In this document: in pieces, positions 6,420 through 57,095 of the stretch | How positions within the stretch are numbered: the stretch's first letter is position 1 | Layout of the letters: every line of letters starts with the position of its first letter | Assembly (NCBI GenBank): GCA_017408045.1 | Contig: JAFQVL010000063.1 | Span: 5,568-69,567, forward strand | DNA from: Clostridia bacterium | GTDB lineage: Bacteria; Bacillota; Clostridia; Christensenellales; Borkfalkiaceae | Length of the DNA stretch: 64,000 nucleotides | Reading direction: 5' to 3' | The notes under the pieces: model-generated | The model's input: only the letters and a program-made list of their open reading frames with translations | Database searches by the model: none | Told to the model about the DNA's origin: nothing | Made by a program: the position numbers and the translations under genes

Positions 6420-9400
6420 TTATAACTTATACCAATAATAATCGTAGTATGTCATCCTAAAATATTTTGCGTTGGTGGACGAATCCTCTACGCTTGTATT
6501 TGTACCGCCCGTTTTATTTTGCCAAGAATACAAGTTTGTTGTTTGATACCAAGCAAACGTGTCCTTAAAGGTAACGCTTGCCAAATTGCCGCACTTGTAG
6601 AACGCCTCTTTGCCAATACTCATTACACCGCCACCGATTTCTACGTTCGTCAAGCCGCAAGAATAGAAAGCTTGAATGCCGATACTCGTCACGCTATCGG
6701 GAATGACCACGTTCGTTAAACTGCTGCATGTGGCAAATGCATAATCACCGATAGACGTGACACCGTCACCAATTACCACACTCGTCAAACTGTTGCAACC
6801 GTAGAACGCATACTGATCGATGCCGCCACACGTAATTCTTACTTCCTTCAAGGAAGTAGGAACATAACTAGCATTATTCTTATAACTACTCCCCCCGAAA
6901 AGATACCCCAAGGGCTTATCTGCGAACCCGTCTTTTCTGTACCAACCAAACGGCATCGTAATACTTTCCAGCGATGAACAGCCATAGAACGCACTCACGC
7001 CAATCGAAGTTATGCTGTCGGGAATGACCACGCTTGTCAAAGTGTTGCAATTATAGAAAGCGCGTTCGTGAATCTCAGTAATATACGAAGGCAAAACCAA
7101 GTCCGTTTCCGTCCCCACGTATCCAACCAAAACCTTTTGGTCTCCGTCTGTACAAATTACATAGCCGTTGTCGTTAAGCAATTGACTTTCCGTTATACCG
7201 CTATCGCTATTGTATACCGCCAAAGCATAATACCCTACGTAGCCGTTGGTGGAATAACCTTTTTCCACAGTAATATGCGTAGACTTATTGATAACTTCTA
7301 TAAGTCTATTACATTGATAGAACGCCTTTTCGCCTATCGAAACAACGCTATTCGGGATAACCACACTCGTCAAACTACCGCAATTATAGAAGGCGTACGC
7401 CCCAATCGTAGTGATACTGTTGGAAAATTCCACGCTTTTCAAGCGATTGCACCAATAGAACGCATCGTCGCCAACATACACCACACTATCGGGCATAACA
7501 ACGCTCGTTAAATGATAACATTCGCTAAACGCACCGTTCTCAATACTGATTACTCCGTCCGGAATGATAAACGTCGTCGCCGTTTTTGCGGCTGCATATT
7601 GAATAAGCCTTGTCCCGTCCTTCGTATACAAATTACCTTCTATGGATTGATACGCCGTGTTGTTCTGATCAACGGTTACATTCGCCAAGTTAGTGCAACC
7701 ATAGAACGCCATTTTTTCTATCGAAATAACGCTTGCGGGTATGTCTATACTCGTCAAACCATCGCAATAAGCAAACGCTTTTTCACCGATAGAAGTTACG
7801 CTGTTCGGGATAACCACGTTCGTCAAGTTCTTAAATTGACAGAACGCATAATTTCCAATCGTGCTTACACCGTCGGGAATCACAAACTCGGTTATGATTT
7901 CGTTGTTTACATACAAATTCTCTACTCGCCATAAAGGATTTGCGGAAGAATTGCTAAACGAAATATTACACCAAGCCGCAAGATCCGTAATATATATCCC
8001 TTTTAACATTGTGTCCATTCCAGAGCCGAAGGCATAATTGCCTATTGAATTTACGCTGGCAGGTATGGTGATACTCTTCATATTTTCGCAAGACTCGAAC
8101 GCATAATCACCAATCGAAGTAACGCCGTCGGGAATCACCAAATCCGTTATATATTCATTGTTTACGTACAACGACCCTGCATACCATAAAGGGTTGGCGT
8201 AAGAATCCCCAAACGAAATATTACACCAAGCCGCAAGACTATCAACGTATACCTTCCATAAACCATTGCAATAATAGAATGCACCTTCGCCAATAGACGT
8301 TATATTGTCAGGAATGGTTATGCTTGCCAACTTATTGCAATCCTTGAATGCGTAATCGCCAATCGTATTTACGCTATTGCCAAGGGATACGCTCTTCACG
8401 CTGGCGCAATAAGCAAACGCTTTTTCACCAATCGTAATTACGTTTTCGCCGATGACTACACCTGTCGCGCTATCACAATAACAGAACGCACCTTTCCCGA
8501 TACTCACAACGCTGTTAGGAATGGTTATACTCGTCAACCTATGGCAATAAGCGAACGCGTAATCCCCAATCGCCGTTACGTTGATGGGAAGTGAAAACGA
8601 AGTGGCGCTTTTGCCGATTGCGTATTGAATAAGTGTTTTTCCGTCTTTGCTGTATAAATTTCCATCTATGGATTGATACACCGTATTGTTTTCCGATACG
8701 ATTATGCTCGTCAAGTAAGAGCAATCATAGAACGCTTTTTTTCCAATCGAAGTGACACTATCAGGAATAGCTATGCTTGTCAATCCGTTGCAATAAGCAA
8801 ACGCATAATCCCCAATGGAATTTACACCGTCGGGAACGGTTATACTCGTCAAACTATTACAATAATAGAACGCATTTTCGCCAATCGTAATTACGCTGGC
8901 GGGAACGGTTATGCTCGTCAAGCCCTTACAAAACTCGAACGCGCAATCACCAATCGAAGTTATGCCGTCGGGAATGGTTATGCTCGTCAAGTTGTTGCAA
9001 GACTCAAACGCGCCGTAAAGGATATTACCGCCTTTAACCACTACCGTTTTTAACGAAGTCGGAATATAGTAGGTGGTGCTGGTTGTACTGCTTGTGCTTG
9101 AACCGTAATAAGATTGTACGGTTTCTGTTCCGCCTGTATAACTATTCGCACCGAAAATATACCCGAACGGATATTGATAAGTATCGGTTGCTGTTTTTCT
9201 GCTGCCACCCACAAATGGAATGGTAATGCTTTTCAGCGAAGAACAACCGCTAAATGCGCCTTCCGAAATACTCGTTACGTAGTCGGGCACGACGATTTCC
9301 GTCACGTATTTATTTTTTACGCCCGTAATCTCACAGGTGGTCGTTGTAGACGTGAAGTTAAAACCGCTCATTTCCGCTTTTAACGCAAACTTTGCCGTCA

Positions 9401-11546
9401 CGTTTTTATCCACCGTGAATGCATATACCAAATCGGTAGAAAGCAATTCATTTCCGCTGTACCAGCCGATAAATTCATAGCCTAAATGAGGTGTTGCCGT
9501 TGCCGTTATAGCCTTGCCGTATTTATACGTACCCTTGTTTGTAATCGTGCCGTAAGTGGTATTATTTACCGATAATACATAAGCATTTCTCGTATAATAT
9601 ACGCTCAAAACACGGCCGCCGTCGCCGTCGATATTGCCACTTACCGTACTCATACTTGCGTTGTAGGTAAAGTGCGCATATTCCTTAATTGCCGCCGTTG
9701 CGGTGGTATCCGTTTTTCCTTTGCCTTCCACCGTTTCGTGCGGCGTGTAGTTATCATTGTCGATATTTTGCAAATAATAGATAACCGTGTATTTCGTATC
9801 GGTGTTTACAGACCAAGTCGCCGTATACGATGCGCTTTTTTCCGCTTTGAAGGTAAATACTTCGTCTTTACAAACGCAAGTTTCACCTTCGTACCAACCA
9901 AGCCAAGTATACCCTGCATTGGTGTTTGCTGTCAACGTGATTTGCTTGTCGTATTTATACGTACCTGCGCCCGAAATAACACCTGCTTTATCGTTGCTCT
10001 TCGTCGTGGAAATCGTATAGAAATTCCGTTTATAATATACGCTTAAAACTTGGCTACCGTCGCCGTCGATATTACCGCTCAATACGTTTTTAAAATACTC
10101 TTGATTGAGTGTAAAATGCGTATACTCCTTAATCTCTGCTTCTACGGTAGTATCCGTTTCCCCTTTACGTTTTTCGGTTTCGTATAAGGTATATTCGTCA
10201 TCGTCAAGGTTTTGCAAATAATAATTGACCGTATATTTTGTGTCTTTATTCACATACCAACCTGCCGTAATGGTCGTGTTTTCCGTAATCGGTTTTGTAA
10301 AATCGTAATCCCACCCTGTAAAGGTATAACCTGTCCTTGTTGTGGTTGGCTCGGTGGCAAGATAGCCTTCTTCTATCGTTTGCTTTTCCACCGGCGTACC
10401 GCCGTCTACGTCAAAGATTACTTCGTACTTATGCAAACGGTAAAGGTTTACCGTATACGTATTGCGCAACTCGTCGTCCAACATCTCAAATACGTATGCG
10501 ACGTTATTTCCTTCTTGTAAAGTTATCTTTTTCGTTGGAATCGGGGGCACACCGTTTTTATCAAAAGAAAGAATAAATTTCGCCTTTCCTACTACCGCGA
10601 CTTCGTCTACAAACGAAAATTCCGTTATTGCGTTTCGCACCGTGCCGTAGACGTTCGTGCCGTCCACGGTAAGGGTGTTGAATAAAATACCCGTTTCCTC
10701 TTGAAGTACATAGCCACAAACGGTGCAGGTTTGCGGCGTGTTTACTGTTGCGGGCGCACCTGCCGTGTGTTTTTCTTCGTTTTCTTTATCACCGCACTCG
10801 CATTCATGCCAATGGTGGGTGTCGTTGCTTTCCCATTCCGTGCTGTGTTCATGGGGGAGCTTGTCGATAGGCTCGGTTTTCGTTGCCGTTTTGCAAACCG
10901 TACACGTATAGGTCGTTTCGCCTTCTTTCGTGCAGGTCGGGGCTTTGGTTTCTTCGCCCTTATCCCAAGTATGTACGCCCGTCGCAGGGATTTCTTGGTA
11001 GGTGGAATACTCACACCCTTCTCTTTCGCAGGTTACGTATTCTTCCCAACCGATCTCCGTACAGGTGGGGGCTTTTGCTTGGTGTGTTTTCTCATCGTGC
11101 GTAAGGGCTTCTACGTCTTCGGTATAGGTCGCTGTTTCACAAACAGTACACGTAAACGTTTTTACACCCTTTTCCGTGCAAGTCGGTTCGGTGGTTACTG
11201 TACCGTCATCCCAAGTATGTACGCCCGTTACGGAAATTTCCTGGTAGGTGGAATACTCGCACCCTTCTCTTTCGCAGGTTACGTATTCGTTCCACCCAAT
11301 TTCCGTGCAGGTGGGGGCTTTTGCCTCGTGGGTTTTTTCATCGTGCCCGAGCGCAAGAATTTCTTGTGTGTAAGCACTGCCACAGGAGCAAGTGTACGTG
11401 ATTAAACCTTTTTCTATACAAGTCGCATTTTTTGTGATTTCCGCCGTATAAGCGTGCTCGTGTTGTTCACGGCACGCAGAAAAACCGAATATACATACAA
11501 GCATCGTCGTGATTGTCATAATAAAAAGTAAACGTTTCTTTTTCAT
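6420..11546 (-). CDS. giant cell-surface lipoprotein: Cys-rich repeats, Listeria-Bacteroides-type repeats and a BspA-type leucine-rich repeat array
   Basis: I chose the start at ATG 11546 because it has a GGAGG RBS. Signal peptide with lipobox (MKKKRLLFIMTITTMLVCIFGFSAC). Two about 82-aa near-identical Cys-rich repeats (HDEKTH.AKAPTCTEIGW.EYVTCEREGCEYSTYQEI...) span about 10853-11345. GYTFTGW repeat modules follow, then dozens of IP..VTSIG..AF..C..LTSI LRR units. Confidence 0.8.
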   Translation of the reverse strand: MKKKRLLFIMTITTMLVCIFGFSACREQHEHAYTAEITKNATCIEKGLITYTCSCGSAYTQEILALGHDEKTHEAKAPTCTEIGWNEYVTCEREGCEYSTYQEISVTGVHTWDDGTVTTEPTCTEKGVKTFTCTVCETATYTEDVEALTHDEKTHQAKAPTCTEIGWEEYVTCEREGCEYSTYQEIPATGVHTWDKGEETKAPTCTKEGETTYTCTVCKTATKTEPIDKLPHEHSTEWESNDTHHWHECECGDKENEEKHTAGAPATVNTPQTCTVCGYVLQEETGILFNTLTVDGTNVYGTVRNAITEFSFVDEVAVVGKAKFILSFDKNGVPPIPTKKITLQEGNNVAYVFEMLDDELRNTYTVNLYRLHKYEVIFDVDGGTPVEKQTIEEGYLATEPTTTRTGYTFTGWDYDFTKPITENTTITAGWYVNKDTKYTVNYYLQNLDDDEYTLYETEKRKGETDTTVEAEIKEYTHFTLNQEYFKNVLSGNIDGDGSQVLSVYYKRNFYTISTTKSNDKAGVISGAGTYKYDKQITLTANTNAGYTWLGWYEGETCVCKDEVFTFKAEKSASYTATWSVNTDTKYTVIYYLQNIDNDNYTPHETVEGKGKTDTTATAAIKEYAHFTYNASMSTVSGNIDGDGGRVLSVYYTRNAYVLSVNNTTYGTITNKGTYKYGKAITATATPHLGYEFIGWYSGNELLSTDLVYAFTVDKNVTAKFALKAEMSGFNFTSTTTTCEITGVKNKYVTEIVVPDYVTSISEGAFSGCSSLKSITIPFVGGSRKTATDTYQYPFGYIFGANSYTGGTETVQSYYGSSTSSTTSTTYYIPTSLKTVVVKGGNILYGAFESCNNLTSITIPDGITSIGDCAFEFCKGLTSITVPASVITIGENAFYYCNSLTSITVPDGVNSIGDYAFAYCNGLTSIAIPDSVTSIGKKAFYDCSYLTSIIVSENNTVYQSIDGNLYSKDGKTLIQYAIGKSATSFSLPINVTAIGDYAFAYCHRLTSITIPNSVVSIGKGAFCYCDSATGVVIGENVITIGEKAFAYCASVKSVSLGNSVNTIGDYAFKDCNKLASITIPDNITSIGEGAFYYCNGLWKVYVDSLAAWCNISFGDSYANPLWYAGSLYVNNEYITDLVIPDGVTSIGDYAFESCENMKSITIPASVNSIGNYAFGSGMDTMLKGIYITDLAAWCNISFSNSSANPLWRVENLYVNNEIITEFVIPDGVSTIGNYAFCQFKNLTNVVIPNSVTSIGEKAFAYCDGLTSIDIPASVISIEKMAFYGCTNLANVTVDQNNTAYQSIEGNLYTKDGTRLIQYAAAKTATTFIIPDGVISIENGAFSECYHLTSVVMPDSVVYVGDDAFYWCNRLKSVEFSNSITTIGAYAFYNCGSLTSVVIPNSVVSIGEKAFYQCNRLIEVINKSTHITVEKGYSTNGYVGYYALAVYNSDSGITESQLLNDNGYVICTDGDQKVLVGYVGTETDLVLPSYITEIHERAFYNCNTLTSVVIPDSITSIGVSAFYGCSSLESITMPFGWYRKDGFADKPLGYLFGGSSYKNNASYVPTSLKEVRITCGGIDQYAFYGCNSLTSVVIGDGVTSIGDYAFATCSSLTNVVIPDSVTSIGIQAFYSCGLTNVEIGGGVMSIGKEAFYKCGNLASVTFKDTFAWYQTTNLYSWQNKTGGTNTSVEDSSTNAKYFRMTYYDYYWYKL

Positions 11547-11643
11547 AATCACCCTCCGCAATCAAAAGTAATAGAATTCAAAATCATTTTATCATTTTTT
11601 AATCCACTCGTCAATAGAATTGTATAGAAAACCTTTTCTATAA

Positions 11644-16405: not shown

Positions 16406-17254
16406 TTAATTTTGAACGGATGTTTCCTCTGTCTGTTCTTCCGGATTCTTCGTATCATCTTCGTCTACGTCGTTTTCATCACAAGTATACCCGTAATTGT
16501 AGGCATATTTAGAATAATGATAATAGCCGCGGTAATTGCTATAGATTTTACCTTGAGACGCGTGGTAATCGTTGACAACCACCCCTAAAACTTCTGATTT
16601 TGCGAACTGCAACGTCGCAAGAGAGCGCTGTACGTCCGAAACGTAGGAAACGTTGTGTCTGCAAATCAGCACCGCACCGTCTGTTTTCGGCGCGATAGCC
16701 AAAGCGTCCGAAACCATCAAAACAGGGGGCGTATCAATGATTGTATAATCAAATTTTTTCCTAAGTTCTTCTAAGAACGTAGCCATTTTGTCGCTTTCAA
16801 GCAATTCATAAGGCTTAGGAGAGTGCGTTCCGCAGGGAATAAAATACAGATTTTCGTTTACAGTCGAGTGATGTAAAATTTCTTCAAAAGAAACCAAACC
16901 CGAGAGGTAGTCGCTAAGACCGGGCGAAGATTTACATTGGAAATATTTTGCAACTCTGCCCTTGCGGATATCGGCGTCAATCAAAACGACCTTTGCATCC
17001 GACATTGCAAACATCAAAGCAAGGTTTACCGTAACCATAGTCTTACCGTCCTCAGGGTAAGAGGAAGTAAAGGTGAGGATGGAGCCTCCCTGCTTTTCAG
17101 GAATGGAAACGGAAAGAGATGCTTTTAAATTACGAAATGCTTCCGTAATATCGAAGGGCGTGTTCTTATCCAACAGGTATACCTTACGGGGAATTTTATG
17201 TTTCTTTGCGTCTTTTTCATGACGACGGTTTTTTAAGTTTTGAAAAAATCCCAT
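16406..17254 (-). CDS. CpsD/CapB-family bacterial tyrosine kinase (BY-kinase) catalytic subunit
   Basis: Walker A-like SSYPEDGKT and Walker A' VVLIDADIRKG. C-terminal tyrosine cluster YSNYRGYYHYSKYAYNYGY. Confidence 0.8.
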   Translation of the reverse strand: MGFFQNLKNRRHEKDAKKHKIPRKVYLLDKNTPFDITEAFRNLKASLSVSIPEKQGGSILTFTSSYPEDGKTMVTVNLALMFAMSDAKVVLIDADIRKGRVAKYFQCKSSPGLSDYLSGLVSFEEILHHSTVNENLYFIPCGTHSPKPYELLESDKMATFLEELRKKFDYTIIDTPPVLMVSDALAIAPKTDGAVLICRHNVSYVSDVQRSLATLQFAKSEVLGVVVNDYHASQGKIYSNYRGYYHYSKYAYNYGYTCDENDVDEDDTKNPEEQTEETSVQN

Positions 17255-17256
17255 AC

Positions 17257-18546
17257 TTACACCTCCTTATTCCGTTGTTCAGATTCATTCTGAGCGTTTA
17301 CTTCTTCTTCGCCGATGGAAGGAATAACACCCAGAAGAGGAACGTTGAGTTGACGAGCAACCAAGTCGTAATCACGGACGCGCTTATCCGATCTATCAAG
17401 GAAGATGACTACAACGCAAGCAACTACAACAGCGATTGCCGCAACCAGCAAAGCAAATTTAATCGACTGTTTTAAAATATATCCCTCATTGATCAGGGAG
17501 ATATCGGTGATGGTGGTGATTTGCGTACAACTCGTCGAAGTATAACCATCAGGAATGATCATTTTTTCACATACGTACTTAGGCAATTCCGACTGCACGC
17601 GCGCCAACAGATCTTCTGCAAACGGCTGATTATCTTCCCCTAAAACGGACAGTTCGACGTAAATGAAGCTTCGCGCCAGGTCGACGGCGTTGTCCAAATC
17701 TTTTTTGTCTTGTACGTAGGAGAATTCAACTGAATCCAAAATAATCAAAAGCAGTTCTTGGTAGCTTGCCGTCTTTCTCCAAGCGTTCAAAGCAACGGTG
17801 ATTTTTTCCTCTGCCGTCTTTGCCGCCGCGAGATAGATTTCTTTCGCTTCCGCTGCAGCATCTTTTGCGCTAATGTAAGCATTCTCCGCACTCTTCATCT
17901 CGCTATACGCTTCGTCCAAATACTCGTCTTTCAAGACTTCTTTCAAACGCAAATATTCTTCCTCGTTGAAGGTGGAGTTAGCAACTTCATCCGCGTTAAA
18001 ATGCTTTAACCAAAGTGGGTTGAGTTTCTTTAAAGCCGCGTTATATATGTTATAGGCCTCACTCTTTTCTGCGTTTGCCGCAAGGTAGTCGTCCTGTTTT
18101 TCCAATGCTACGTTATAATCTGCTCTTGCAGCGACAATCTTATCGTCTAAACCCAAAGCGACTTCCTTTTCATTGAGAGGGTCTACCCACTTACCGGTTT
18201 CAGGTAAAACGTCGCCGTTCAAAATGAGTAATTCCCCAAAACTTTCCGAATTGAGAAGTCGTACGATATTGTCCATAACGTTCTTACCGTAAGCACCGTA
18301 AACGCCGTAAGTAGAACCACCCGTCAAATCCATATCTTCTTCCTTATCGGGGCGCACAGGGTTGACGTAGAATTCCATATTCGTACCCCAGTAATAGACG
18401 TTGTAAGACGTTGCAAAACCAATTGCGCCACCCAACAAACCTCCACACAACAATACGAGAATGAGAATCTTTATTTTCGCCAACAGGATTTTTAATAAAC
18501 CCAACAGGCTAAGTTCTTCATTTTGGAGCTGTTCATTTTCGTTCAT
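17257..18546 (-). CDS. Wzz/CpsC-like chain-length-determinant / BY-kinase transmembrane activator, enlarged extracytoplasmic domain
   Basis: Two TM helices (LILVLLCGGLLGGAIGFA near the N-terminus, FALLVAAIAVVVACVVVIFL near the C-terminus) flank an about 330-aa domain. The gene abuts the kinase gene. Confidence 0.7.
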   Translation of the reverse strand: MNENEQLQNEELSLLGLLKILLAKIKILILVLLCGGLLGGAIGFATSYNVYYWGTNMEFYVNPVRPDKEEDMDLTGGSTYGVYGAYGKNVMDNIVRLLNSESFGELLILNGDVLPETGKWVDPLNEKEVALGLDDKIVAARADYNVALEKQDDYLAANAEKSEAYNIYNAALKKLNPLWLKHFNADEVANSTFNEEEYLRLKEVLKDEYLDEAYSEMKSAENAYISAKDAAAEAKEIYLAAAKTAEEKITVALNAWRKTASYQELLLIILDSVEFSYVQDKKDLDNAVDLARSFIYVELSVLGEDNQPFAEDLLARVQSELPKYVCEKMIIPDGYTSTSCTQITTITDISLINEGYILKQSIKFALLVAAIAVVVACVVVIFLDRSDKRVRDYDLVARQLNVPLLGVIPSIGEEEVNAQNESEQRNKEV

Positions 18547-20621: not shown

Positions 20622-20635
20622 GAACAAGAACAACA

Positions 20636-20666
20636 AAAAGCTCTGCATTATCGCAGAGCTTTTTTA
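20636..20666 (+). terminator. intrinsic terminator after ricT
   Basis: Stem GCTCTGC/GCAGAGC with flanking A-run and T6. Confidence 0.75.
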
Positions 20667-20710
20667 CTCTAAAGAAATATAAAAAAATAAAAAAAAGTGG
20701 CAGTAGAAAC

Positions 20711-20738
20711 TTGACAAAGGAAAAATATAAGATATAAT
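20711..20738 (+). promoter_or_regulatory. sigma-A type promoter of the RHS toxin operon
   Basis: TTGACA (20711-20716), a 16-bp spacer, then TATAAT (20733-20738). A leader hairpin GACACCGAG...CTCGGTGT follows at 20742-20779. Confidence 0.5.
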
Positions 20739-20890
20739 GCGGACACCGAGTTTGTTTTGAGGGGGAAACGGCTCGGTGTTCTTATATTTTAATAAGGGGG
20801 TGTTTACGTGTAAAGGATAGCTAAAAAACAAAAAAATTGAATACGTAAAAGGGAAAAGTAAAAAAGAAAATAAATTTTAAGGAGAGAATT

Positions 20891-23800
20891 ATGGAAGGAA
20901 ATAGCAGAAAAATAATCATCACACCAACGCCGATGCCGGAACCGGGTTCAACCGAAGGCGATGATTCTATTAAGCATGAAATATCGAACGTGCAGCAGGA
21001 ATACGGATTGATTAAAGGCGTGAAAGCACACGTCAATTTTGACGATAAGAGCTACGCAATGTCCGTGCCGATCATTCAAGGCAAGGACACAACGATGGGT
21101 ATTACATTGTTGCAGATACATAACCCCAGCAACGAATTGACGGTCTTTGGCGGCGGCATTCGATTTAATTTCAGCGAGGAATTGCGGATAGACACAGAGG
21201 ATAGTAGCTACTACAAATACACAGACGAGGTTGGCAAGCAGGAGCGTTTTAAAAACCAATATTATTATAAAGGCAGCAGCTACGTATTAAGCGAAGCGGA
21301 TATAAACGAGATGACGTACGACCAAACGCTTGGTTGCTACGTACACGGCTCCGCAAAGGTGGAATACGACGGGCAGACAAAAAACGGATGGAGATTTGTA
21401 TCTGCCAAAGAAATGCCAACGGTGCAAGGGGTTTTAAGCGTAATGGAAACCAGCTTAAACACCGTAAAAAGCAATCACGACGAAGGTGAAACGTCAGGTA
21501 TGGCTACGAAAGCATATTATCTTAGGAAAGGCAACCAAATTAAAGTATTCAATACAGCTGGGTATCTAATTCAGATTGGCAACAGTACAGGTCAATTCGT
21601 GTATATTGTGCGAGAGAATGGGCACAAGATTTTGCGTATTTTTGACCATGAGGGCAGAGAGATTACCTTTGAGTACAGTAGCGGCAAACTGCAAAAAATC
21701 ACAGACAGCCGCGGTAGAGAAATTCTCTATACGTACGACGGACAAAGAGTCCAAAAAATCAGATACCGCGCGAATGCAAGCAGCAGTACTTCGTATGAAA
21801 GTTTAACCTATAATCACCATATCGTAGACGGCGTAAAGCAAAACAAGACCACTATTACATCTTCAGACGGCGAAAGCGCGACCTTAGAATATACCACGCA
21901 AGAGGGAAATTCGCTAACCAAAATCACCTACCAGCCGCAGAACAAAACGTTATCTTTTTTATACACCGACACAAAGGTTATTGTCAGCGCCGAAAAAGGC
22001 ACGCAGGAAGAAGGCACGCAGGAAGAAGGCACGCAGGAAGAATACACCGTTTATAGAGGCGCGGAGATTCCGTATATCAACGAATATAAACAGACGGTGA
22101 ACGGAAAGATAACGGCATACAATACCTATTTAATTGCCCAAAGAAGCGGGCTTATCGTGCGGGAAACGAAATATCCAAAGCGTTCACAGCTTTGCAAGGC
22201 AACGGTTCCAAGCAGCTTGCCGATTATCCACACGGTAAAGAACGATCGTCGAAAACTGGTTTTAGAGGAAACGCAGGAGAATATCGAGGTATCACCAACA
22301 GTCAACAAGGACGTGCATACGACGTATACTTATAACGAATATGGAATGCCTGTAAAACGCCGAACGGTAGAAACGTACTCCACGGGCGAAAGCTACGCTT
22401 ACGTAGAAGAAAGCTTTTACAATCCAACGACCCTTGGCTTACAAAAGAAAGTATCCTACGTAGAGGGCGAGGAGCAAACGACGGGATACGCGTTTGAATT
22501 CTATACCTACGACAGCCAAGGCAGAGTAATTAAAACCAAGACGGTGAGAAAGATTTGTGAATGCAGCGGGGATTGTACCTGTAAAGGGTTAGAGGATAGC
22601 ACCACTCTTTTGGGCTTCGTGCAGGAGCAGACCTATGACGAACACGGCAACGTGGTATCTAAAAAGGACGAAACGGGGCTGTATTATACGGCTTACACGT
22701 ATACGGAGAATACCAAACTTTTAAAGCGAGAGCATAGACCAGGGACTACCTCACAACACCAAATCGAATACACCTATGACGAACGGGATAGATTAGTCAA
22801 GGCGGCGGAAACAGCCACATATAACGTTATGGGGTATACCGCAGACAACGTTTCCGTAATGGGTGTAAAGAACAACGAACAGCTGTTGCAGTTTACTTAC
22901 GACACAAGAAAGCGATTGTCACAGGTATCGTTTGGCGGTAGCGTGTACGAGGGTATGGAGTATGGCGAGAACGAAACTTACAGCGAATACGACGTGGACA
23001 GGATTGAGCTGAACAACGCCAACGTCGAAAAATTCAAACTCTTGTCCGATGTAAAGGGCGCAAAGGAATGGTATTTCTACACCCCTGCTGCTACTGAGGA
23101 AAGCCCTACCCCTGAAGAAACCTTGTTGTTTACCAACGAATACGACGAATACGGACAGTTGGTGAAATTAGATGCAACCGTCTACGGCGATACGTATCAC
23201 TATGATGAAACGTACGAATATGACGAGACAGGTAGGCTAACCTATTACGACGGAGACCTTATCAGAGAAACGTATACGTATAACAATAAGGGACAGATAT
23301 CGCAGATTGTGTATACGGGTGTGGCAAGCAGAACGGAAACGCGAGAATACACGGACGATTCGCGAGGGTTGTTAGAGAGAATCAGCTACGGCGACGTGGC
23401 GTGCTGGAAAACGTATGATAAATACGGGCGTTTACAATACCAAGGAGTTGAGCTGAATGGTTGCTATGACGTGTCTGATATAAAGTATAAAACCGTAAAC
23501 GACCACGAAACGAATCAGGTGCAGGAATTTAGAAACTCGGTAGACTGCTTTACTTATACCTATGATAAAAATGGGAATATCACGGAAATCTACAACTGGG
23601 GCAACCTCATTAAAAAATACACGTACAGTATTCAGGGAAGATTGACCACGGAAGAAAATCTGTCGATATCACAAAAGACGGAATATACGTATAGCCAGCA
23701 AGGAGATATTACCCAAAAGACAAGGTATATAAAGGATTTTAATGGAAACTATTTTAAACCTACAACGAAAACCTATACGTACAGCACGGACGGAAAGTAT

Positions 23801-24880
23801 TTGTTGACGGCTTACAATGGTAGCGCGTGTGTATATGATGCGTTAGGTAATCCCACTACCTATAAAGGGAAGACCTTGGTGTGGGGTCAAGGGAAACGCT
23901 TGCTTTCTTACGACGGCTTAAATTTCACTTACGATGCGAGGGGTAGACGAATCCAAAAAGGCAGCGAAAGCTACTATTATGATAGCCGAGATAGGTTGGT
24001 AAGAGGTGGCGTGTTAGACTATTACTACGCCGATAACGAGGTAATAAGTTGTGCGTATAACGGCGTAAGATACATTTATTGCAAAGACGTGTTTGGAAAT
24101 ATTACGGCAATACTTGACGAAAACGAGAATGTTGTGGTAAAATATGATTACGATGCTTGGGGCAACCACCGTGTATTAAACAGCGCGGGCGCGGTAATCA
24201 CGGACACGCAGCATATCGGGCATAAGAATCCGTTTAGATACCGTGGGTATTATTACGATACCGAAACGGGGTTATATTACCTGAAATCAAGATATTACGA
24301 CCCCGAAACCTGCCGTTTCATCAATATGGACAGCGTGGAATACGCCGACCCGACCTACCTGCACGGCTTAAATCTCTACGCATATTGTAATAACAACCCC
24401 ATTATGTACGTTGACCCGAACGGGAATTTCTTCTGGCTATTAGTAGTTTTGGGTTTAGGTGCAGTAGCGGGCGGTATTTTAAGTGGAGTAGAAGCGTATA
24501 ACAGCGGTGATCGAGGCTGGGAACTTGCAGGGGATATTGTTTTAGGGGCAACCATAGGGGTTGCTGTTGCTGGAGCCGCTATAACGGTTTCCTCTGTTGT
24601 TGCTGGTGCATTTGGTCAAGTTGCTTTTTTAGGAACAACGGTTAAACAAGCATTTGCTATTGGCGCGTTGGCATATAATGGTTTTGGTGCGATAGTTGCG
24701 CCGCTAATAGGACAAAGTATGCAGCTGATAGAAATAGGAGGCAATTCTTATAAGGATGCTATAGAATATCCTGTTTCAGGAATTACAACCACGAATGGTA
24801 TCGTTAAGAATAATCAAAGCCCTAATTCAAACGTAAAAAATCTTTTTAGAAAATTAAGGAATTTAAAAGATTTTATGTAA
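20891..24880 (+). CDS. RHS/YD-repeat polymorphic toxin with glycine-zipper hydrophobic C-terminal domain
   Basis: Many YD repeats (YTYDERDRL, YEYDETGRL, YTYDKNGNI, FTYDARGRR...). RHS core end is RYRGYYYDTETGLYYLKSRYYDPETCRFINMDS...YVDPNG (D at 24413). An about 150-aa Gly/Ala-rich hydrophobic tail follows (GLGAVAGGILSG, GATIGVAVAGAAI, AIGALAYNGFGAIVAPLIG). Confidence 0.9.
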   Translation: MEGNSRKIIITPTPMPEPGSTEGDDSIKHEISNVQQEYGLIKGVKAHVNFDDKSYAMSVPIIQGKDTTMGITLLQIHNPSNELTVFGGGIRFNFSEELRIDTEDSSYYKYTDEVGKQERFKNQYYYKGSSYVLSEADINEMTYDQTLGCYVHGSAKVEYDGQTKNGWRFVSAKEMPTVQGVLSVMETSLNTVKSNHDEGETSGMATKAYYLRKGNQIKVFNTAGYLIQIGNSTGQFVYIVRENGHKILRIFDHEGREITFEYSSGKLQKITDSRGREILYTYDGQRVQKIRYRANASSSTSYESLTYNHHIVDGVKQNKTTITSSDGESATLEYTTQEGNSLTKITYQPQNKTLSFLYTDTKVIVSAEKGTQEEGTQEEGTQEEYTVYRGAEIPYINEYKQTVNGKITAYNTYLIAQRSGLIVRETKYPKRSQLCKATVPSSLPIIHTVKNDRRKLVLEETQENIEVSPTVNKDVHTTYTYNEYGMPVKRRTVETYSTGESYAYVEESFYNPTTLGLQKKVSYVEGEEQTTGYAFEFYTYDSQGRVIKTKTVRKICECSGDCTCKGLEDSTTLLGFVQEQTYDEHGNVVSKKDETGLYYTAYTYTENTKLLKREHRPGTTSQHQIEYTYDERDRLVKAAETATYNVMGYTADNVSVMGVKNNEQLLQFTYDTRKRLSQVSFGGSVYEGMEYGENETYSEYDVDRIELNNANVEKFKLLSDVKGAKEWYFYTPAATEESPTPEETLLFTNEYDEYGQLVKLDATVYGDTYHYDETYEYDETGRLTYYDGDLIRETYTYNNKGQISQIVYTGVASRTETREYTDDSRGLLERISYGDVACWKTYDKYGRLQYQGVELNGCYDVSDIKYKTVNDHETNQVQEFRNSVDCFTYTYDKNGNITEIYNWGNLIKKYTYSIQGRLTTEENLSISQKTEYTYSQQGDITQKTRYIKDFNGNYFKPTTKTYTYSTDGKYLLTAYNGSACVYDALGNPTTYKGKTLVWGQGKRLLSYDGLNFTYDARGRRIQKGSESYYYDSRDRLVRGGVLDYYYADNEVISCAYNGVRYIYCKDVFGNITAILDENENVVVKYDYDAWGNHRVLNSAGAVITDTQHIGHKNPFRYRGYYYDTETGLYYLKSRYYDPETCRFINMDSVEYADPTYLHGLNLYAYCNNNPIMYVDPNGNFFWLLVVLGLGAVAGGILSGVEAYNSGDRGWELAGDIVLGATIGVAVAGAAITVSSVVAGAFGQVAFLGTTVKQAFAIGALAYNGFGAIVAPLIGQSMQLIEIGGNSYKDAIEYPVSGITTTNGIVKNNQSPNSNVKNLFRKLRNLKDFM
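21998..22042 (+). repeat. 3 x 15-bp perfect in-frame tandem repeat (GGCACGCAGGAAGAA; GTQEE x3) inside the RHS gene
   Basis: Read directly from the sequence: three consecutive identical 15-mers. Confidence 0.95.
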
Positions 24881-24898
24881 TAGGAAAGGAGAATATAA

Positions 24899-25366
24899 GT
24901 GATAGTTTTTAAAGGAGAGATATCGAAAAGCTGTAAAAAATATTTAAAAAAGCAAGACTTGCATGGGCGATGGATTCTATGGTCGATAATTGTACTTGTT
25001 TTAAGCGCAGGCATTATTTTTTTAGCGGCAATTTACGATTGGATTGTTTTAAGTTTTCTTTTTCTCCCTTTTTTGATTGTCGCAGGGGATTATTTTTCAA
25101 TGCCTCAAAACGCAATGCTTAGCTATCCTAAATCAATAACGATAACAAACGACGAAGTTTGGTTAGAATGTCAATCTGGAACAATAACACGCTCGTTGTT
25201 GGATGTCAAATGTGTCATTGATTGTGGAGATTGGTATTATGTTCAATTTTATTTTCCTCATCATAAATATTTCGCCTGTCAAAAAGATTTAATCATAGAA
25301 GGAACAATAGAGGAATTTGAAGAACAATTTAAAGGTAGTATTACACATATGAATGATGTGAAATAA
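24899..25366 (+). CDS. putative immunity protein, 2-TM YcxB-like
   Basis: GTG start with an AAGGAG RBS, 18 nt after the RHS stop. Two adjacent TM helices (WSIIVLVLSAGIIFLAAIY, IVLSFLFLPFLIVAG) precede a soluble domain. The region is AT-rich like the toxin tail. Confidence 0.6.
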   Translation: MIVFKGEISKSCKKYLKKQDLHGRWILWSIIVLVLSAGIIFLAAIYDWIVLSFLFLPFLIVAGDYFSMPQNAMLSYPKSITITNDEVWLECQSGTITRSLLDVKCVIDCGDWYYVQFYFPHHKYFACQKDLIIEGTIEEFEEQFKGSITHMNDVK

Positions 25367-25374
25367 AGCGAAAG

Positions 25375-25407
25375 GCGGAGCGTGGAAACACGCTCCGCCT
25401 GTTGTTA
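25375..25407. terminator. bidirectional terminator between the immunity gene and clpX
   Basis: 11-bp stem GGCGGAGCGTG/CACGCTCCGCC with loop GAAA. Confidence 0.75.
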
Positions 25408-25424
25408 TAAACAAAGAAGCGGTG

Positions 25425-26654
25425 TCAAACCGCTTCCTTGTAGATAATTTTGGGTTGTGCTTTTTGCGTGATACACTCTTTGGTCAAAATGACCTCGGAA
25501 ATATTTTCCTCGGAAGGGATTTTGTACATGACTTCCGTCATCACGCCTTCGATAATCGTTCTAAGCCCGCGCGCGCCCGTCTTTAAACGGATTGCCGTCT
25601 GCGCGATTTCGCGTACCGCCTCTTCCTCTACCGTCAGTTGTACGCCGTCTAAGCCCACTAACTTTTGGTACTGCTTGATGATGGCGTTCTTCGGCTCGGT
25701 CAAAATCTTCATGAGCGCCTTTTCGTCCAAAGGCTCTAAATTGACGACGATGGGGATACGGCCTACGAATTCAGGGATTAACCCGAACTTCGTCAAATCC
25801 TGCGGCTGTACGTCCTCTAAAAGAGAGTAATCCGCCTCGCCCTCGCCTAATTTTACCTTGCCGCCAAACCCAAGCGACGAAGTCTCCGTCCTTGCCGACA
25901 CAATCTTGTCGAGGCCCACGAACGCACCGCCGCAAATAAACAAAATGTTGGTGGTGTCAATCTTCAAACACTCCTGCGAGGGGTGCTTTCTGCCGCCCGT
26001 CGGGGGAACGCTCGCTTGTGTGCTCTCGATAATCTTTAAGAGTGCTTGCTGTACGCCTTCGCCCGACACGTCGCGAGTGATAGAAACGTTTTCGCCTTTT
26101 CTGGCAATCTTGTCGATTTCGTCGATATAGATGATACCGCGCTGCGCCTTTTCGATATTGAAATCGGCGTTTTGAATGAGCTTTAAAAGGATATTTTCGA
26201 CGTCCTCACCGACGTAGCCTGCCTCCGTCAAAGTGGTAGCGTCCGTCGTAGCAAAGGGTACGCCGATGATTTTCGCCAAAGTGCGCGCCAGCAGCGTTTT
26301 GCCGCTACCCGTAGGACCGAGCAGCAACACGTTGCTCTTTTCAATTTCCACTTCGTCGTCCTTGGACTTTTTCATACCTGCGTTGATACGCTTATAGTGG
26401 TTGTAGACGGCAACGGAAAGCACGCGCTTTGCCTTGTCTTGTCCAACGATATATTTATCTAACTCGGATTTTAATTCAGAGGGCTTTTTGAGGGGGATTT
26501 CTTCCGTTTGCGGCTGCGTTTCAGCTGCCTCTACCATATCGTAGCAGACACGAACGCACTCCTCGCAGATAAAAGCGTCGTTGCCTGCAATCAGTTCGCT
26601 GGTTTTTTCTTTTTCTCTTCCGCAAAAGGAACAGTAGTGCTTATTTTCTGACAT
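25425..26654 (-). CDS. clpX: ATP-dependent Clp protease ATP-binding subunit ClpX
   Basis: Zinc finger CSFCG...CEEC, Walker A GPTGSGKT and an IGF-like loop LGFGG. Confidence 0.93.
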
Positions 26655-55559: not shown

Positions 55560-57095
55560 ATGAGTAAAATTATGCGTTTTGTTTCCACGCGCAGCAAAGA
55601 AAAAGTATCGGGCGCAGAAGCGATTGTAAAAGGGCTCGCTTCTGACGGCGGTTTGTTCGTGCCCGAGAGCTTTCCAAAGGTGTCCGAGGAAGAACTATTG
55701 AAAATGGGCGAGATGAACTACCCCGAACGGGCGGCGTTCATTCTCGGGAAATACCTCGGCGCAGAGCTGGGGCAGGATTTCCTTTTGGAAACCTGCACGA
55801 AGGCGTATTCCGCGTTTGAAGGGGACGATCCCGTACCCCTCGTCAAAATTGACGACGGTTTTTATATCATGGAACTTTTCCACGGCCCTACCTGCGCGTT
55901 TAAGGATATGGCGCTGACCGTATTGCCTTACCTTTTGAAGCGCAGCTGTGAAAAGTTGGGGATTGACGACGAGATTTTAATTCTCACCGCGACCAGCGGC
56001 GACACGGGCAAAGCGGCGCTTGAGGGCTTCCGCGACGTGCCCGGCACGAAGGTATCGGTGTTCTATCCCGATGAAGGGGTTGCAAAAATGCAACGCCTGC
56101 AAATGTGCGTGCAGGACGGAAAAAACGTCTTTGTTGCGGCGGTTTCCGGCAATTTTGACGATTGCCAGCGCGCGGTGAAAAAGCTGTTTGGCGACGAGGA
56201 TTTCAATAAGGCTCTGCAAGAAAAAGGGGTGCGTGTTTCCAGCGCGAATTCCATCAACTTCGGACGGCTTGCGCCGCAGATTGCCTATTACTTCTCCGCA
56301 TACGTGGATTTGATTACGGGCGGCAAGGCGGATATGGGCGAACCCATTGACTTCGTCGTACCGACGGGCAATTTCGGGGATATTTTGGCGGGCTGGTATG
56401 CAAAGCAAATGGGCTTACCCGTAAGAAGATTGCTGTGCGCCTCCAACAAAAACAAGGTACTTGCCGACTTCTTTGCGACGGGAAAATACGACGTAAAACG
56501 CGATTTCCACCGTACCATGTCTCCGTCTATGGATATTTTGGTGTCTTCCAACCTTGAACGCTTACTGTTTGAAATCAGCGGTAGGAACGCGAAGTTGACC
56601 GCCGAAAGAATGAAGTCCTTACAGGAAAAGGGCGAGTATACGATCACGGCGGAAGAACTTGCAAAAATCAAAGAGGATTTCTACGGCGGCTTTGCCAGCG
56701 AGGACGACACCGTGGAGGCAATGTACGAAATCTTTGAGGAATACGGCTATGCGATGGATACGCACACCGGCGTTGCGCTGGCGGTGTATCTGGACGCTAT
56801 GGATAGACGGGATAGAAAGGACATTACGCAGACGGTGGTATTGTCTACGGCGAACCCCTACAAATTCCCGCAGGACGTTTTGTACGCCCTTTCGGGCAAC
56901 GACGTCAAGGACAGTTTTAAGGGGATTAAGCGTTTGAACCTCTTAACGGCAATGAAGCCGCCGAAGAGTTTGCTTGACCTTCGTTATCGTCCCTTGCGGT
57001 TTAAAAAGACCTACCCCAACGACCTCAAAAAGATGGCGGCGGCGGTGCTGGATTTTGTAGACGGTAATATCGTCCCTATACCAGATGAAAAGTAA
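55560..57095 (+). CDS. thrC: threonine synthase (long form)
   Basis: FHGPTCAFKDMAL (PLP lysine) and SGNFG motifs, 511 aa. Confidence 0.9.
   Translation: MSKIMRFVSTRSKEKVSGAEAIVKGLASDGGLFVPESFPKVSEEELLKMGEMNYPERAAFILGKYLGAELGQDFLLETCTKAYSAFEGDDPVPLVKIDDGFYIMELFHGPTCAFKDMALTVLPYLLKRSCEKLGIDDEILILTATSGDTGKAALEGFRDVPGTKVSVFYPDEGVAKMQRLQMCVQDGKNVFVAAVSGNFDDCQRAVKKLFGDEDFNKALQEKGVRVSSANSINFGRLAPQIAYYFSAYVDLITGGKADMGEPIDFVVPTGNFGDILAGWYAKQMGLPVRRLLCASNKNKVLADFFATGKYDVKRDFHRTMSPSMDILVSSNLERLLFEISGRNAKLTAERMKSLQEKGEYTITAEELAKIKEDFYGGFASEDDTVEAMYEIFEEYGYAMDTHTGVALAVYLDAMDRRDRKDITQTVVLSTANPYKFPQDVLYALSGNDVKDSFKGIKRLNLLTAMKPPKSLLDLRYRPLRFKKTYPNDLKKMAAAVLDFVDGNIVPIPDEK

Follow-up and report, generated by a model that had tools for sequence, protein, structure and literature searches.

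The window analysed here, a stretch of 64,000 nucleotides (nt) of contig JAFQVL010000063.1 from a Clostridia bacterium of the Borkfalkiaceae, carries a two-gene operon that encodes an RHS/YD-repeat shell protein of 1329 amino acids (aa) with a Gly/Ala-rich hydrophobic tail, followed by a 155-aa membrane protein. This operon is probably an interbacterial RHS toxin/immunity pair, in which a depolarising payload resembling that of the Pseudomonas aeruginosa effector Tse5 is matched by a membrane immunity partner. The proposal builds on the RHS identity of the large protein and its intact core, the recurrence of its tail in a strict RHS context, the co-occurrence of tail and partner, the polymorphism at the core-tail junction and the insertion of the operon at a housekeeping site. 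The weapon type is already known; new are the unnamed payload family and the unnamed immunity family, for which the model predicts a transmembrane (TM) hairpin and a PH-like domain. RHS shells with membrane-depolarising payloads are known from one Gram-negative effector of a type VI secretion system (T6SS), and the locus would extend this idea to uncultured gut Clostridia, where it is widespread (Christensenellales-type and Oscillospiraceae metagenome-assembled genomes, MAGs). Frequent orphan copies of the immunity gene suggest real toxin traffic between gut commensals, and leaderless shells in genomes lacking the secretion system of type VII (T7SS) sharpen the question of export. The toxin-immunity pair is small and self-contained and thus amenable to direct laboratory testing.

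In the mechanism that we propose, the 1329-aa protein would fold into a YD-repeat shell enclosing its own last ~150 residues, and would cut this payload free at its aspartyl-protease plug (D1137, D1175), after ...YVDPNG. The payload would act without being an enzyme, as a Gly/Ala-rich bundle of three membrane helices with a short basic amphipathic helix. Delivered to another cell, it may enter the bilayer at the cytoplasmic membrane of the target, oligomerise through the small-residue faces of its helices and dissipate the membrane potential, as experiments have shown for Tse5. The 155-aa partner, presumably located in the membranes of the producer and of many non-producers, would neutralise the toxin within the bilayer, the conserved first helical hairpin of the toxin being the most likely binding site.

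The large protein is an RHS protein by several profiles. Pfam RHS_repeat (PF05593) matches four stretches of it (E 1.3e-16), PF25023 (TEN_YD-shell) is found in the precomputed annotation of an identical protein, and Rhs_assc_core (TIGR03696) covers aa 1087-1178 with E 1.5e-22 and 79.9 bits against a cut-off of 32.5. The core motifs RYYDPE (D1137) and YVDPNG (D1175) hold the two catalytic Asp of the auto-protease, the second encoded at nt 24413, exactly where the first-pass annotation of this DNA had placed the terminus of the core. The core, which aligns with those of solved Rhs, Tc and teneurin structures, is intact and may be expected to cleave itself. The open reading frame (ORF) starts at an ATG preceded by AGGAG at a distance of 7 nt, and merely 14 open codons lie upstream of it, so the protein has no hidden N-terminal extension.

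The tail that follows the core had been described at first pass as ~150 aa of Gly/Ala-rich hydrophobic helices forming a membrane-type module, not a nuclease or deaminase, and this description agrees with what we find. Gly and Ala make up 34.5% of its first 110 residues, among which 8 are charged, versus 11.4% in the body of the protein. The AlphaFold model, built with the family alignment (predicted local distance difference test, pLDDT, 83 overall and >89 for residues 1-100), contains three long hydrophobic helices at tail residues 2-26, 32-62 and 73-95, which would form a three-helix membrane bundle, and an end helix at 136-150. The profile and structure searches then suggested for this tail gave no Pfam or NCBIfam match for aa 1179-1329 even at E<=1, and no enzyme family; the fold search against the PDB returned nothing below E = 2, as expected for a small helical bundle, and neither the tail alone nor its profile found a relative among PDB sequences. 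The Pfam glycine-zipper families PF13441, PF13488 and PF13436 do not match the window tail at E<=1 (one of 23 members of the tail family gives a sub-threshold PF13441 match), and the defence-system models of PADLOC match neither the tail nor the 155-aa protein.

A search of 1.84 billion cluster representatives retrieved 113 representatives at E<=1e-3, 41 of them at E<=1e-10. In all 113 the matching segment (tail residues ~3-111) is the C-terminal end, placed directly after the ...NNPxxYxDPxG of an RHS core; the short matches are orphan or truncated RHS ends, and LXG, CdiA or other carriers are absent among the 113. The consensus runs from helix 1 through the turn AYNxGxRGW(D/E)L, helix 2 (ILGAxxGLAVGG) and a Gly-rich connector to helix 3 (QAFAIGALA(Y/F)N...APLxG..M..IE), after which comes a short variable end, often Pro-rich. 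Among the relatives G16, G41 and G45 are invariant and G28, G31, G50, G70 and G80 conserved at >=90%, and Pro positions are conserved across the family as well. Judged from these alignments, the tail is a recurrent, RHS-only family of payloads that has no name. A second, ~210-aa all-membrane tail subfamily, which leaves ~630 nt between core and immunity gene, occurs in loci L070, L072, L075, L078, L080 and L091; it has just helix 1, an AYNEGRRG turn and helix 2 in common with the window tail.

The downstream gene, previously proposed as a two-TM immunity candidate, does encode two TM helices. In its AlphaFold model (pLDDT 86.9) a TM hairpin (~aa 10-75) comes after a basic N-terminal strand and before a probably PH-like beta domain with an invariant CQK..L..EGTIE.FE motif, both termini being predicted cytoplasmic. 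Profile and structure searches, also suggested at that stage, place it in no named family: Pfam, NCBIfam and PADLOC scans give nothing above cut-off (DUF2244 reaches 16.6 bits under a cut-off of 27, with a sub-threshold match in 3/12 members), and the Foldseek matches are all PH/PTB-like and weak (E 3e-3 to 1e-1, probability 0.9-1.0). Homologues of this protein lie directly 3' of three independent full-length RHS genes with the same tail (P0002, 39% identity, E 2e-32; P0008, 33%, 2e-25; P0015, 32%, 3e-18). They also outlast decayed toxins: in L008 a 79%-identical copy stands between a 5'-truncated remnant of this tail (…AYNGFGVIVAPLLGKSMDLIEWGG…KDFM), on its 5' side, and an orphan RHS core that bears a different tail, on its 3' side, and in L009 a 35%-identical copy comes after a 77-aa RHS-core stub.

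With the immunity alignment as query, one genome per species and each locus counted once, homologues were found in 79 loci, all of them in MAGs of uncultured gut Clostridia (labelled Clostridia, Christensenellales, Borkfalkiaceae, Coproplasma or Oscillospiraceae). Every tail-family match (22/22, in 19 of the loci) is preceded by an RHS core and directly followed by an immunity homologue. Six further loci hold the second, longer all-membrane tail subfamily, paired with divergent immunity members (24-29% identity); 42 have no RHS within 6 kb and are orphans in unrelated contexts, and in six the upstream sequence is too short to judge. By this co-occurrence in many independent loci the 155-aa protein is the likely cognate partner, and it would be expected to protect. 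A membrane-located immunity protein, as modelled, fits a membrane-located toxin, and the frequency of orphan immunity genes fits protection against incoming toxin. The orphans have no recurrent neighbours besides scattered ABC ATPases, which occur near 7/42 of them at variable positions and may be there by chance; ABC transporter genes are also found close to RHS or orphan-immunity loci at L006/L007:4802-6514, L014:3141-5090 and L013:13538-16296. Tandem or duplicated immunity copies in one locus, a poly-immunity arrangement, are seen in L026, L044 and L061. The RHS gene P0015 (L014:8001-14164), with its tail of the same family and its immunity homologue, matches its database protein only if TGA is read as W, so the tail family occurs in a code-4 gut lineage too.

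The distribution of tails and partners also bears on a different division of labour, in which the Gly/Ala helices would be a membrane-entry module only and the toxic principle would reside in the poorly conserved last ~45 residues or in what these recruit. The first helix-turn-helix of the tail (…AYNxGxRGWEL…) is indeed shared with RHS tails that have soluble-looking ends (P0034, P0038, P0044, P0017, P0080) and soluble, unrelated downstream genes, and in the mosquito protein SGS1 the TM helices after the core precede a separate Tox-SGS domain (PMC9935623). However, all that follows helix 3 in the window tail is a disordered linker, highly variable and mostly rich in Pro, and a single amphipathic helix, which makes this end too small for an enzyme. 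Furthermore, integral-membrane immunity tracks the all-membrane tails, including the second subfamily, and is absent from the hairpin-plus-enzyme toxins: the hairpin-sharing RHS genes with soluble-looking ends in L099 and L100 are followed by soluble, unrelated proteins, and the membrane immunity family is thus associated with the all-membrane tails and apparently follows the hairpin that they share. We regard a purely entry-related role of the helices as unlikely, and a depolarising payload remains the reading that we prefer.

The tails are exchangeable. The close relatives P0011 and P0009 have their N-terminus and body in common with the window RHS (73% and 64% identical, respectively, in the first 400 aa), but their tails, although hydrophobic as well, are different ones and the genes downstream of them are unrelated, which bears out the initial classification as an RHS polymorphic toxin. 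Their loci continue with orphan core-tail-immunity cassettes, and orphan arrays are seen in L004, L005, L008 and L012. The orphan cores of L004 and L005 are ~90% identical at the DNA level to window positions 23763-24424, versus 72-78% for the main bodies, and their homology ends exactly at the DPNG junction (24404-24424), as the earlier suggestion of cassette swapping would predict. On this alignment evidence the DPNG junction is the classical RHS recombination breakpoint, with the core as the probable substrate of tail swapping. The genome of the window holds one RHS gene, one tail and one immunity gene and no orphan cassettes, so that a search for such cassettes, proposed at first pass, was negative there and positive in the loci of the relatives.

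This polymorphism is difficult to reconcile with a non-toxic tail that would simply tether the shell to the membrane of the producer, the 155-aa protein being a structural partner. Such an anchor would be in keeping with a tail that is hydrophobic and, in the AlphaFold model, helical, and with a partner that is a membrane protein. However, the intact auto-protease site in front of the tail would sever it, the same shell carries unrelated tails and partners in sister strains, degraded tails keep intact partner genes, and the partners occur as orphans. We consider the anchor very improbable, and the toxin/immunity reading is retained in what follows.

The whole locus seems to be mobile as well. 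In a sister species whose flanks are 87% identical, a homologous RHS gene is found directly after thrC (L004:4196-10041), and the same site is RHS-free in the window (55560-57095); the RHS locus appears, from this comparison, to have moved between housekeeping sites without visible mobility genes. The insertion between the holB-ricT block and clpX that had been postulated for the operon is supported by G015, the closest relative with shared synteny, in which ricT and the convergent clpX are ~98 nt apart, the RHS operon is missing and the gap holds one bidirectional terminator. Since this site is empty, the 4.7-kb operon is an insertion in the window or was cleanly deleted in G015. Its left edge is the terminator of the holB-ricT unit and its right edge the terminator shared with clpX, called on each strand; flanking direct or inverted repeats or other signs of a mobile element were not found around the insertion. 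The GC content from ~24600 to 25500 is 0.30-0.36, versus 0.42-0.48 in the RHS body. The Gly/Ala-rich part of the tail is GC-normal at 0.47-0.49, so that in the toxin gene just the final ~150 nt are AT-rich, together with the immunity gene; the initial statement that tail and downstream gene are more AT-rich than the body holds for these two parts and fails for the Gly/Ala-coding part.

With regard to export, ~45 aa precede the shell, and the absence of a Sec signal, LXG or PAAR-like region reported at first pass was confirmed: a heuristic for signal peptides found no hydrophobic N-region (maximum hydropathy 0.77 over the first 80 aa), and the Pfam and NCBIfam scans found neither LXG nor PAAR in the protein, nor did the Pfam scan find wall-binding domains. 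Likewise, no T7SS or T6SS genes had been seen nearby, and the operon's neighbours in the window (holB, ricT (PSP1), clpX, clpP, tig, rqcH) include no secretion genes; a PAAR-type N-terminus is lacking, T6SS genes themselves not having been searched for in the genome. The genome-wide search for a T7SS, which had been recommended, found no WXG100 and, for EssC, just FtsK-like partial matches below cut-off in the 81%-complete genome of the window, with the same outcome in eight RHS-bearing relatives. Because four of these eight are at least 95% complete, one being a single contig, the T7SS is considered absent from the lineage and not merely unassembled. Among 98 full-length relatives, five have signal-peptide-like N-termini and 93 lack a known export signal, and relatives of the same order are mostly leaderless too. 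With neither an export signal nor a T7SS in sight, the ~150-kDa folded shell must leave by an undescribed or a lysis-based route. Nineteen of the 98 begin with MG[IT]IK[LI]K… and seven with MGILNMNG… (e.g., P0019, P0025, P0036, P0040, P0045, P0048, P0049); such N-termini, conserved and not hydrophobic, might act in export or processing as signals that have so far gone unrecognised, and the window protein has neither.

The same data can be read as a system acting inside the producer, a suicide, abortive-infection or lysis module in which a trigger would release the payload from the cytoplasmic shell and the 155-aa protein would be the antidote. The leaderless N-terminus, the failure to find a T7SS in the genome and the eight relatives, the small share (5/98) of signal-peptide-like relatives and a leader with a terminator-like hairpin, suggestive of tight control, would all suit such a module. 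Against it are the lack of a match to known defence-system models (PADLOC), the Sec signal peptides of some relatives, and polymorphic tails, orphan arrays and orphan immunity genes without a nearby RHS, which are hallmarks of intercellular antagonism. An internal role is therefore judged quite improbable, and an interbacterial toxin is still favoured.

For the release of this toxin, lysis or a holin is the leading guess, and by analogy it provides a lead only for the present locus. In L100 a 94-aa Phage_holin_5_2 gene (L100:2720-3004) shares 4 nt with the start of a leaderless RHS gene, the next RHS gene is preceded by a second holin stub (L100:8285-8365), and just upstream there are a 189-aa helix-turn-helix/sigma-like gene and a gene for a 93-aa protein with a single TM segment. 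The PF16079 holin is absent from the window, from its genome (81% complete) and from the other loci examined, L100 being the sole exception. A more far-reaching conjecture, which we hold to be speculative and on balance doubtful, is that leaderless RHS toxins of T7SS-less gut Clostridia leave through a dedicated phage-derived holin/lysis route, a Gram-positive counterpart of the release of Tc toxins by a type X secretion system (T10SS). The promoter-hairpin leader would confine expression to a sacrificial subpopulation, the window operon would be a minimal version with its release factor elsewhere, and the common Gly/Ala hairpin would serve the whole lineage for membrane entry, having become the weapon itself in the present tail family.

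Several points weigh against the toxin/immunity interpretation as a whole. Toxicity, membrane action and protection are proposed from sequence and models, and the tail has no detectable sequence or fold relation to the C-terminal fragment of Tse5 or to any characterised pore former. Enrichment in glycine zippers, considered as a signature, had to be rejected: the repeated small-xxx-small motifs noted in the first-pass annotation are present (18) and their Gly positions conserved, but their number is not above the mean of 16.7 in composition-preserving shuffles (p=0.38; triple zipper p=0.18; GxxxG p=0.71), so the “zippers” are an effect of composition. In relatives the first hairpin also stands in front of soluble domains, so a part of the tail may serve for delivery and not be the toxic principle. 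Tail and immunity divergence do not correlate significantly over 15 pairs (Spearman 0.13, Mantel p about 0.14), so that co-evolution of the two is not demonstrated beyond co-occurrence. Finally, no way for the RHS protein to leave the producer can be recognised, in a genome showing neither a T7SS nor the PF16079 holin.

The coordinates of the operon and its borders are collected in Table 1.

Table 1. Features of the RHS operon and its edges, in window coordinates.
Feature	Position	Strand	Basis or content
Intrinsic terminator of the holB-ricT unit	20635..20664	+	12-bp perfect inverted repeat, then T-run
Sigma-70-type promoter, TTGACA-16 nt-TATAAT	20711..20738	+	12/12 consensus positions
Conserved 5' leader	20741..20822	+	Hairpin, U-rich tract, conserved stretch AAGGGGGUGUUUACGUGUAAAGGAUAG
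RHS/YD-repeat shell protein, 1329 aa, leaderless	20891..24880	+	RHS repeat and core profile matches
In-frame exact 3 x 15-bp repeat, GTQEE x3, aa 370-384	21998..22042	+	Two or three copies in deposited versions
RHS-associated core (aspartyl auto-protease plug), aa 1087-1178	24149..24424	+	TIGR03696
Putative C-terminal payload, aa 1179-1329 (151 aa)	24425..24877	+	AlphaFold model and family alignment
Tail helix 1	24428-24502	+	AlphaFold; then polar turn AYNSGDRGWEL
Tail helix 2	24518-24610	+	AlphaFold
Tail helix 3, motif AFAIGALAYN...APLIG..IE	24641-24709	+	AlphaFold; then disordered linker
Tail basic amphipathic end helix	24830-24874	+	AlphaFold
Cognate immunity candidate, 155 aa	24899..25366	+	Two TM helices; GTG start with AGGAG 7 nt before it
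Bidirectional terminator shared with convergent clpX	25373..25400	both	12-bp stem, 9 G-C pairs

The operon's own consensus promoter and its leader hairpin with a U-rich tail, both described previously, were recovered. The promoter is kept in the RHS loci of L004 and L005. The hairpin (20741-20782) has a predicted fold of -28.4 kcal/mol (z = -2.6) and is followed by UUAUAUUUU; with its U-rich tail it reaches 20793, and the predicted transcription start is at the foot of its stem. In comparison with the two related loci, the outer stem (ACACCGAG/CUCGGUGU) is invariant and the loop varies. Promoter and leader together (20693-20822) are 91% and 86% identical in L004 and L005, versus 78% and 72% for the RHS coding DNA and 60% and 46% for the spacer before the ATG; the leader is thus conserved at about the level of housekeeping DNA between these loci and well above the RHS coding DNA. 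Rfam holds no match to it, and full-length copies are absent from 40 related species genomes. From its conservation we read the leader as a functional element, which could act in attenuation, stabilise the 5' end or serve as the site of a regulator. Its part at 20783-20822 contains AAGGGGGUG and, 7 nt later, GUG-UAA, that is, a Shine-Dalgarno-like site and a start-stop mini-ORF, which vary little or not at all between the window and the two related loci.

Within the shell gene, the exact GTQEE repeat that had been pointed out as a potential length-variable site was found again. The protein has been deposited in two versions (1324 and 1329 aa, on contigs of 103,350 and 103,364 bp) that differ only in holding two and three copies, respectively, and P0009 and P0011 have a single degenerate unit. 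The 2/3-copy difference supports length variability, a difference between assemblies being the alternative. Elsewhere in the window, a gene on the minus strand (6420-11561) encodes a protein of 1712 aa that has leucine-rich repeats of the BspA type (LRR_5, E 7e-181) as well as Listeria-Bacteroides repeats and is probably located at the cell surface; the gene sits upstream of a pair of Wzz-like and tyrosine-kinase-like genes (16406-18546).

Among the known systems, the WapA-type RHS toxins of Bacillus subtilis and Streptococcus suis (PMC12704120) are the Firmicute RHS proteins that likewise possess a downstream immunity gene and orphan cassettes. WapA has a Sec signal, wall-binding repeats and nucleases as its known tails, whereas both the signal peptide and wall-binding domains are missing from the window protein. 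The LXG toxins of the T7SS are comparable as Firmicute antibacterials with Gly-rich C-terminal helices and membrane immunity proteins. TspA and TelE belong to this group as membrane-depolarising toxins with glycine-zipper tails. The same is described for EsxX of Staphylococcus aureus (PMC12744356). These toxins combine an N-terminal LXG domain with the T7SS, whereas the window toxin uses an RHS shell as carrier, with no LXG in the protein and no WXG100 or EssC in its genome. Tc and large clostridial toxins are large and leaderless like the window RHS; the Tc toxin of Yersinia entomophaga, which has a YD shell, is released through T10SS-type holin/endolysin lysis (PMC10847048), and large clostridial toxins show TcdE-dependent release (PMC12150058). 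A Phage_holin_5_2 gene is present at the related locus L100, and no holin of that family was found in the window genome.

The mosquito salivary proteins SGS1 and SGS4 (PDB 8fjp, 9on3) have the same layout, with a YD shell, an auto-protease site and Gly/Ala-rich predicted TM helices; in SGS1 the helices right after the auto-protease site are stored inside the shell on hydrophobic patches (PMC9935623). When the final 329 residues of the window protein are compared with the PDB, these two proteins match best, and the alignment extends beyond the core by 70-85 residues and so reaches helix 1, the turn and helix 2. Homology of the tails was nevertheless rejected as a conclusion: the match arises only when anchored by the core, and neither the tail alone nor its profile retrieves SGS, so the likeness is architectural and homology of the helices unproven. 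In addition, SGS1 and SGS4 are eukaryotic proteins of 3,364 and 3,398 aa with receptor domains and a Tox-SGS domain.

The closest functional model is Tse5 (RhsP1, PA2684) with its immunity protein Tsi5. Its sequence similarity to the window protein is limited to the core (aa 1112-1178, E 6e-6 in a PDB sequence search), so the latter does not belong to the Tse5 tail family, and Tse5 is a T6SS effector of a diderm with a PAAR-type N-terminus, whereas the window protein has no PAAR and a monoderm-type Clostridia host. The two are alike in the size of the shell, the hydrophobic C-terminal fragment and the immunity gene placed directly 3'. In Tse5 the Rhs shell holds a ~16-kDa hydrophobic fragment that is freed by the aspartyl protease and inserts spontaneously into membranes, where it forms ion-selective pores and depolarises the cell, cleavage mutants being inactive (PMC10684867).

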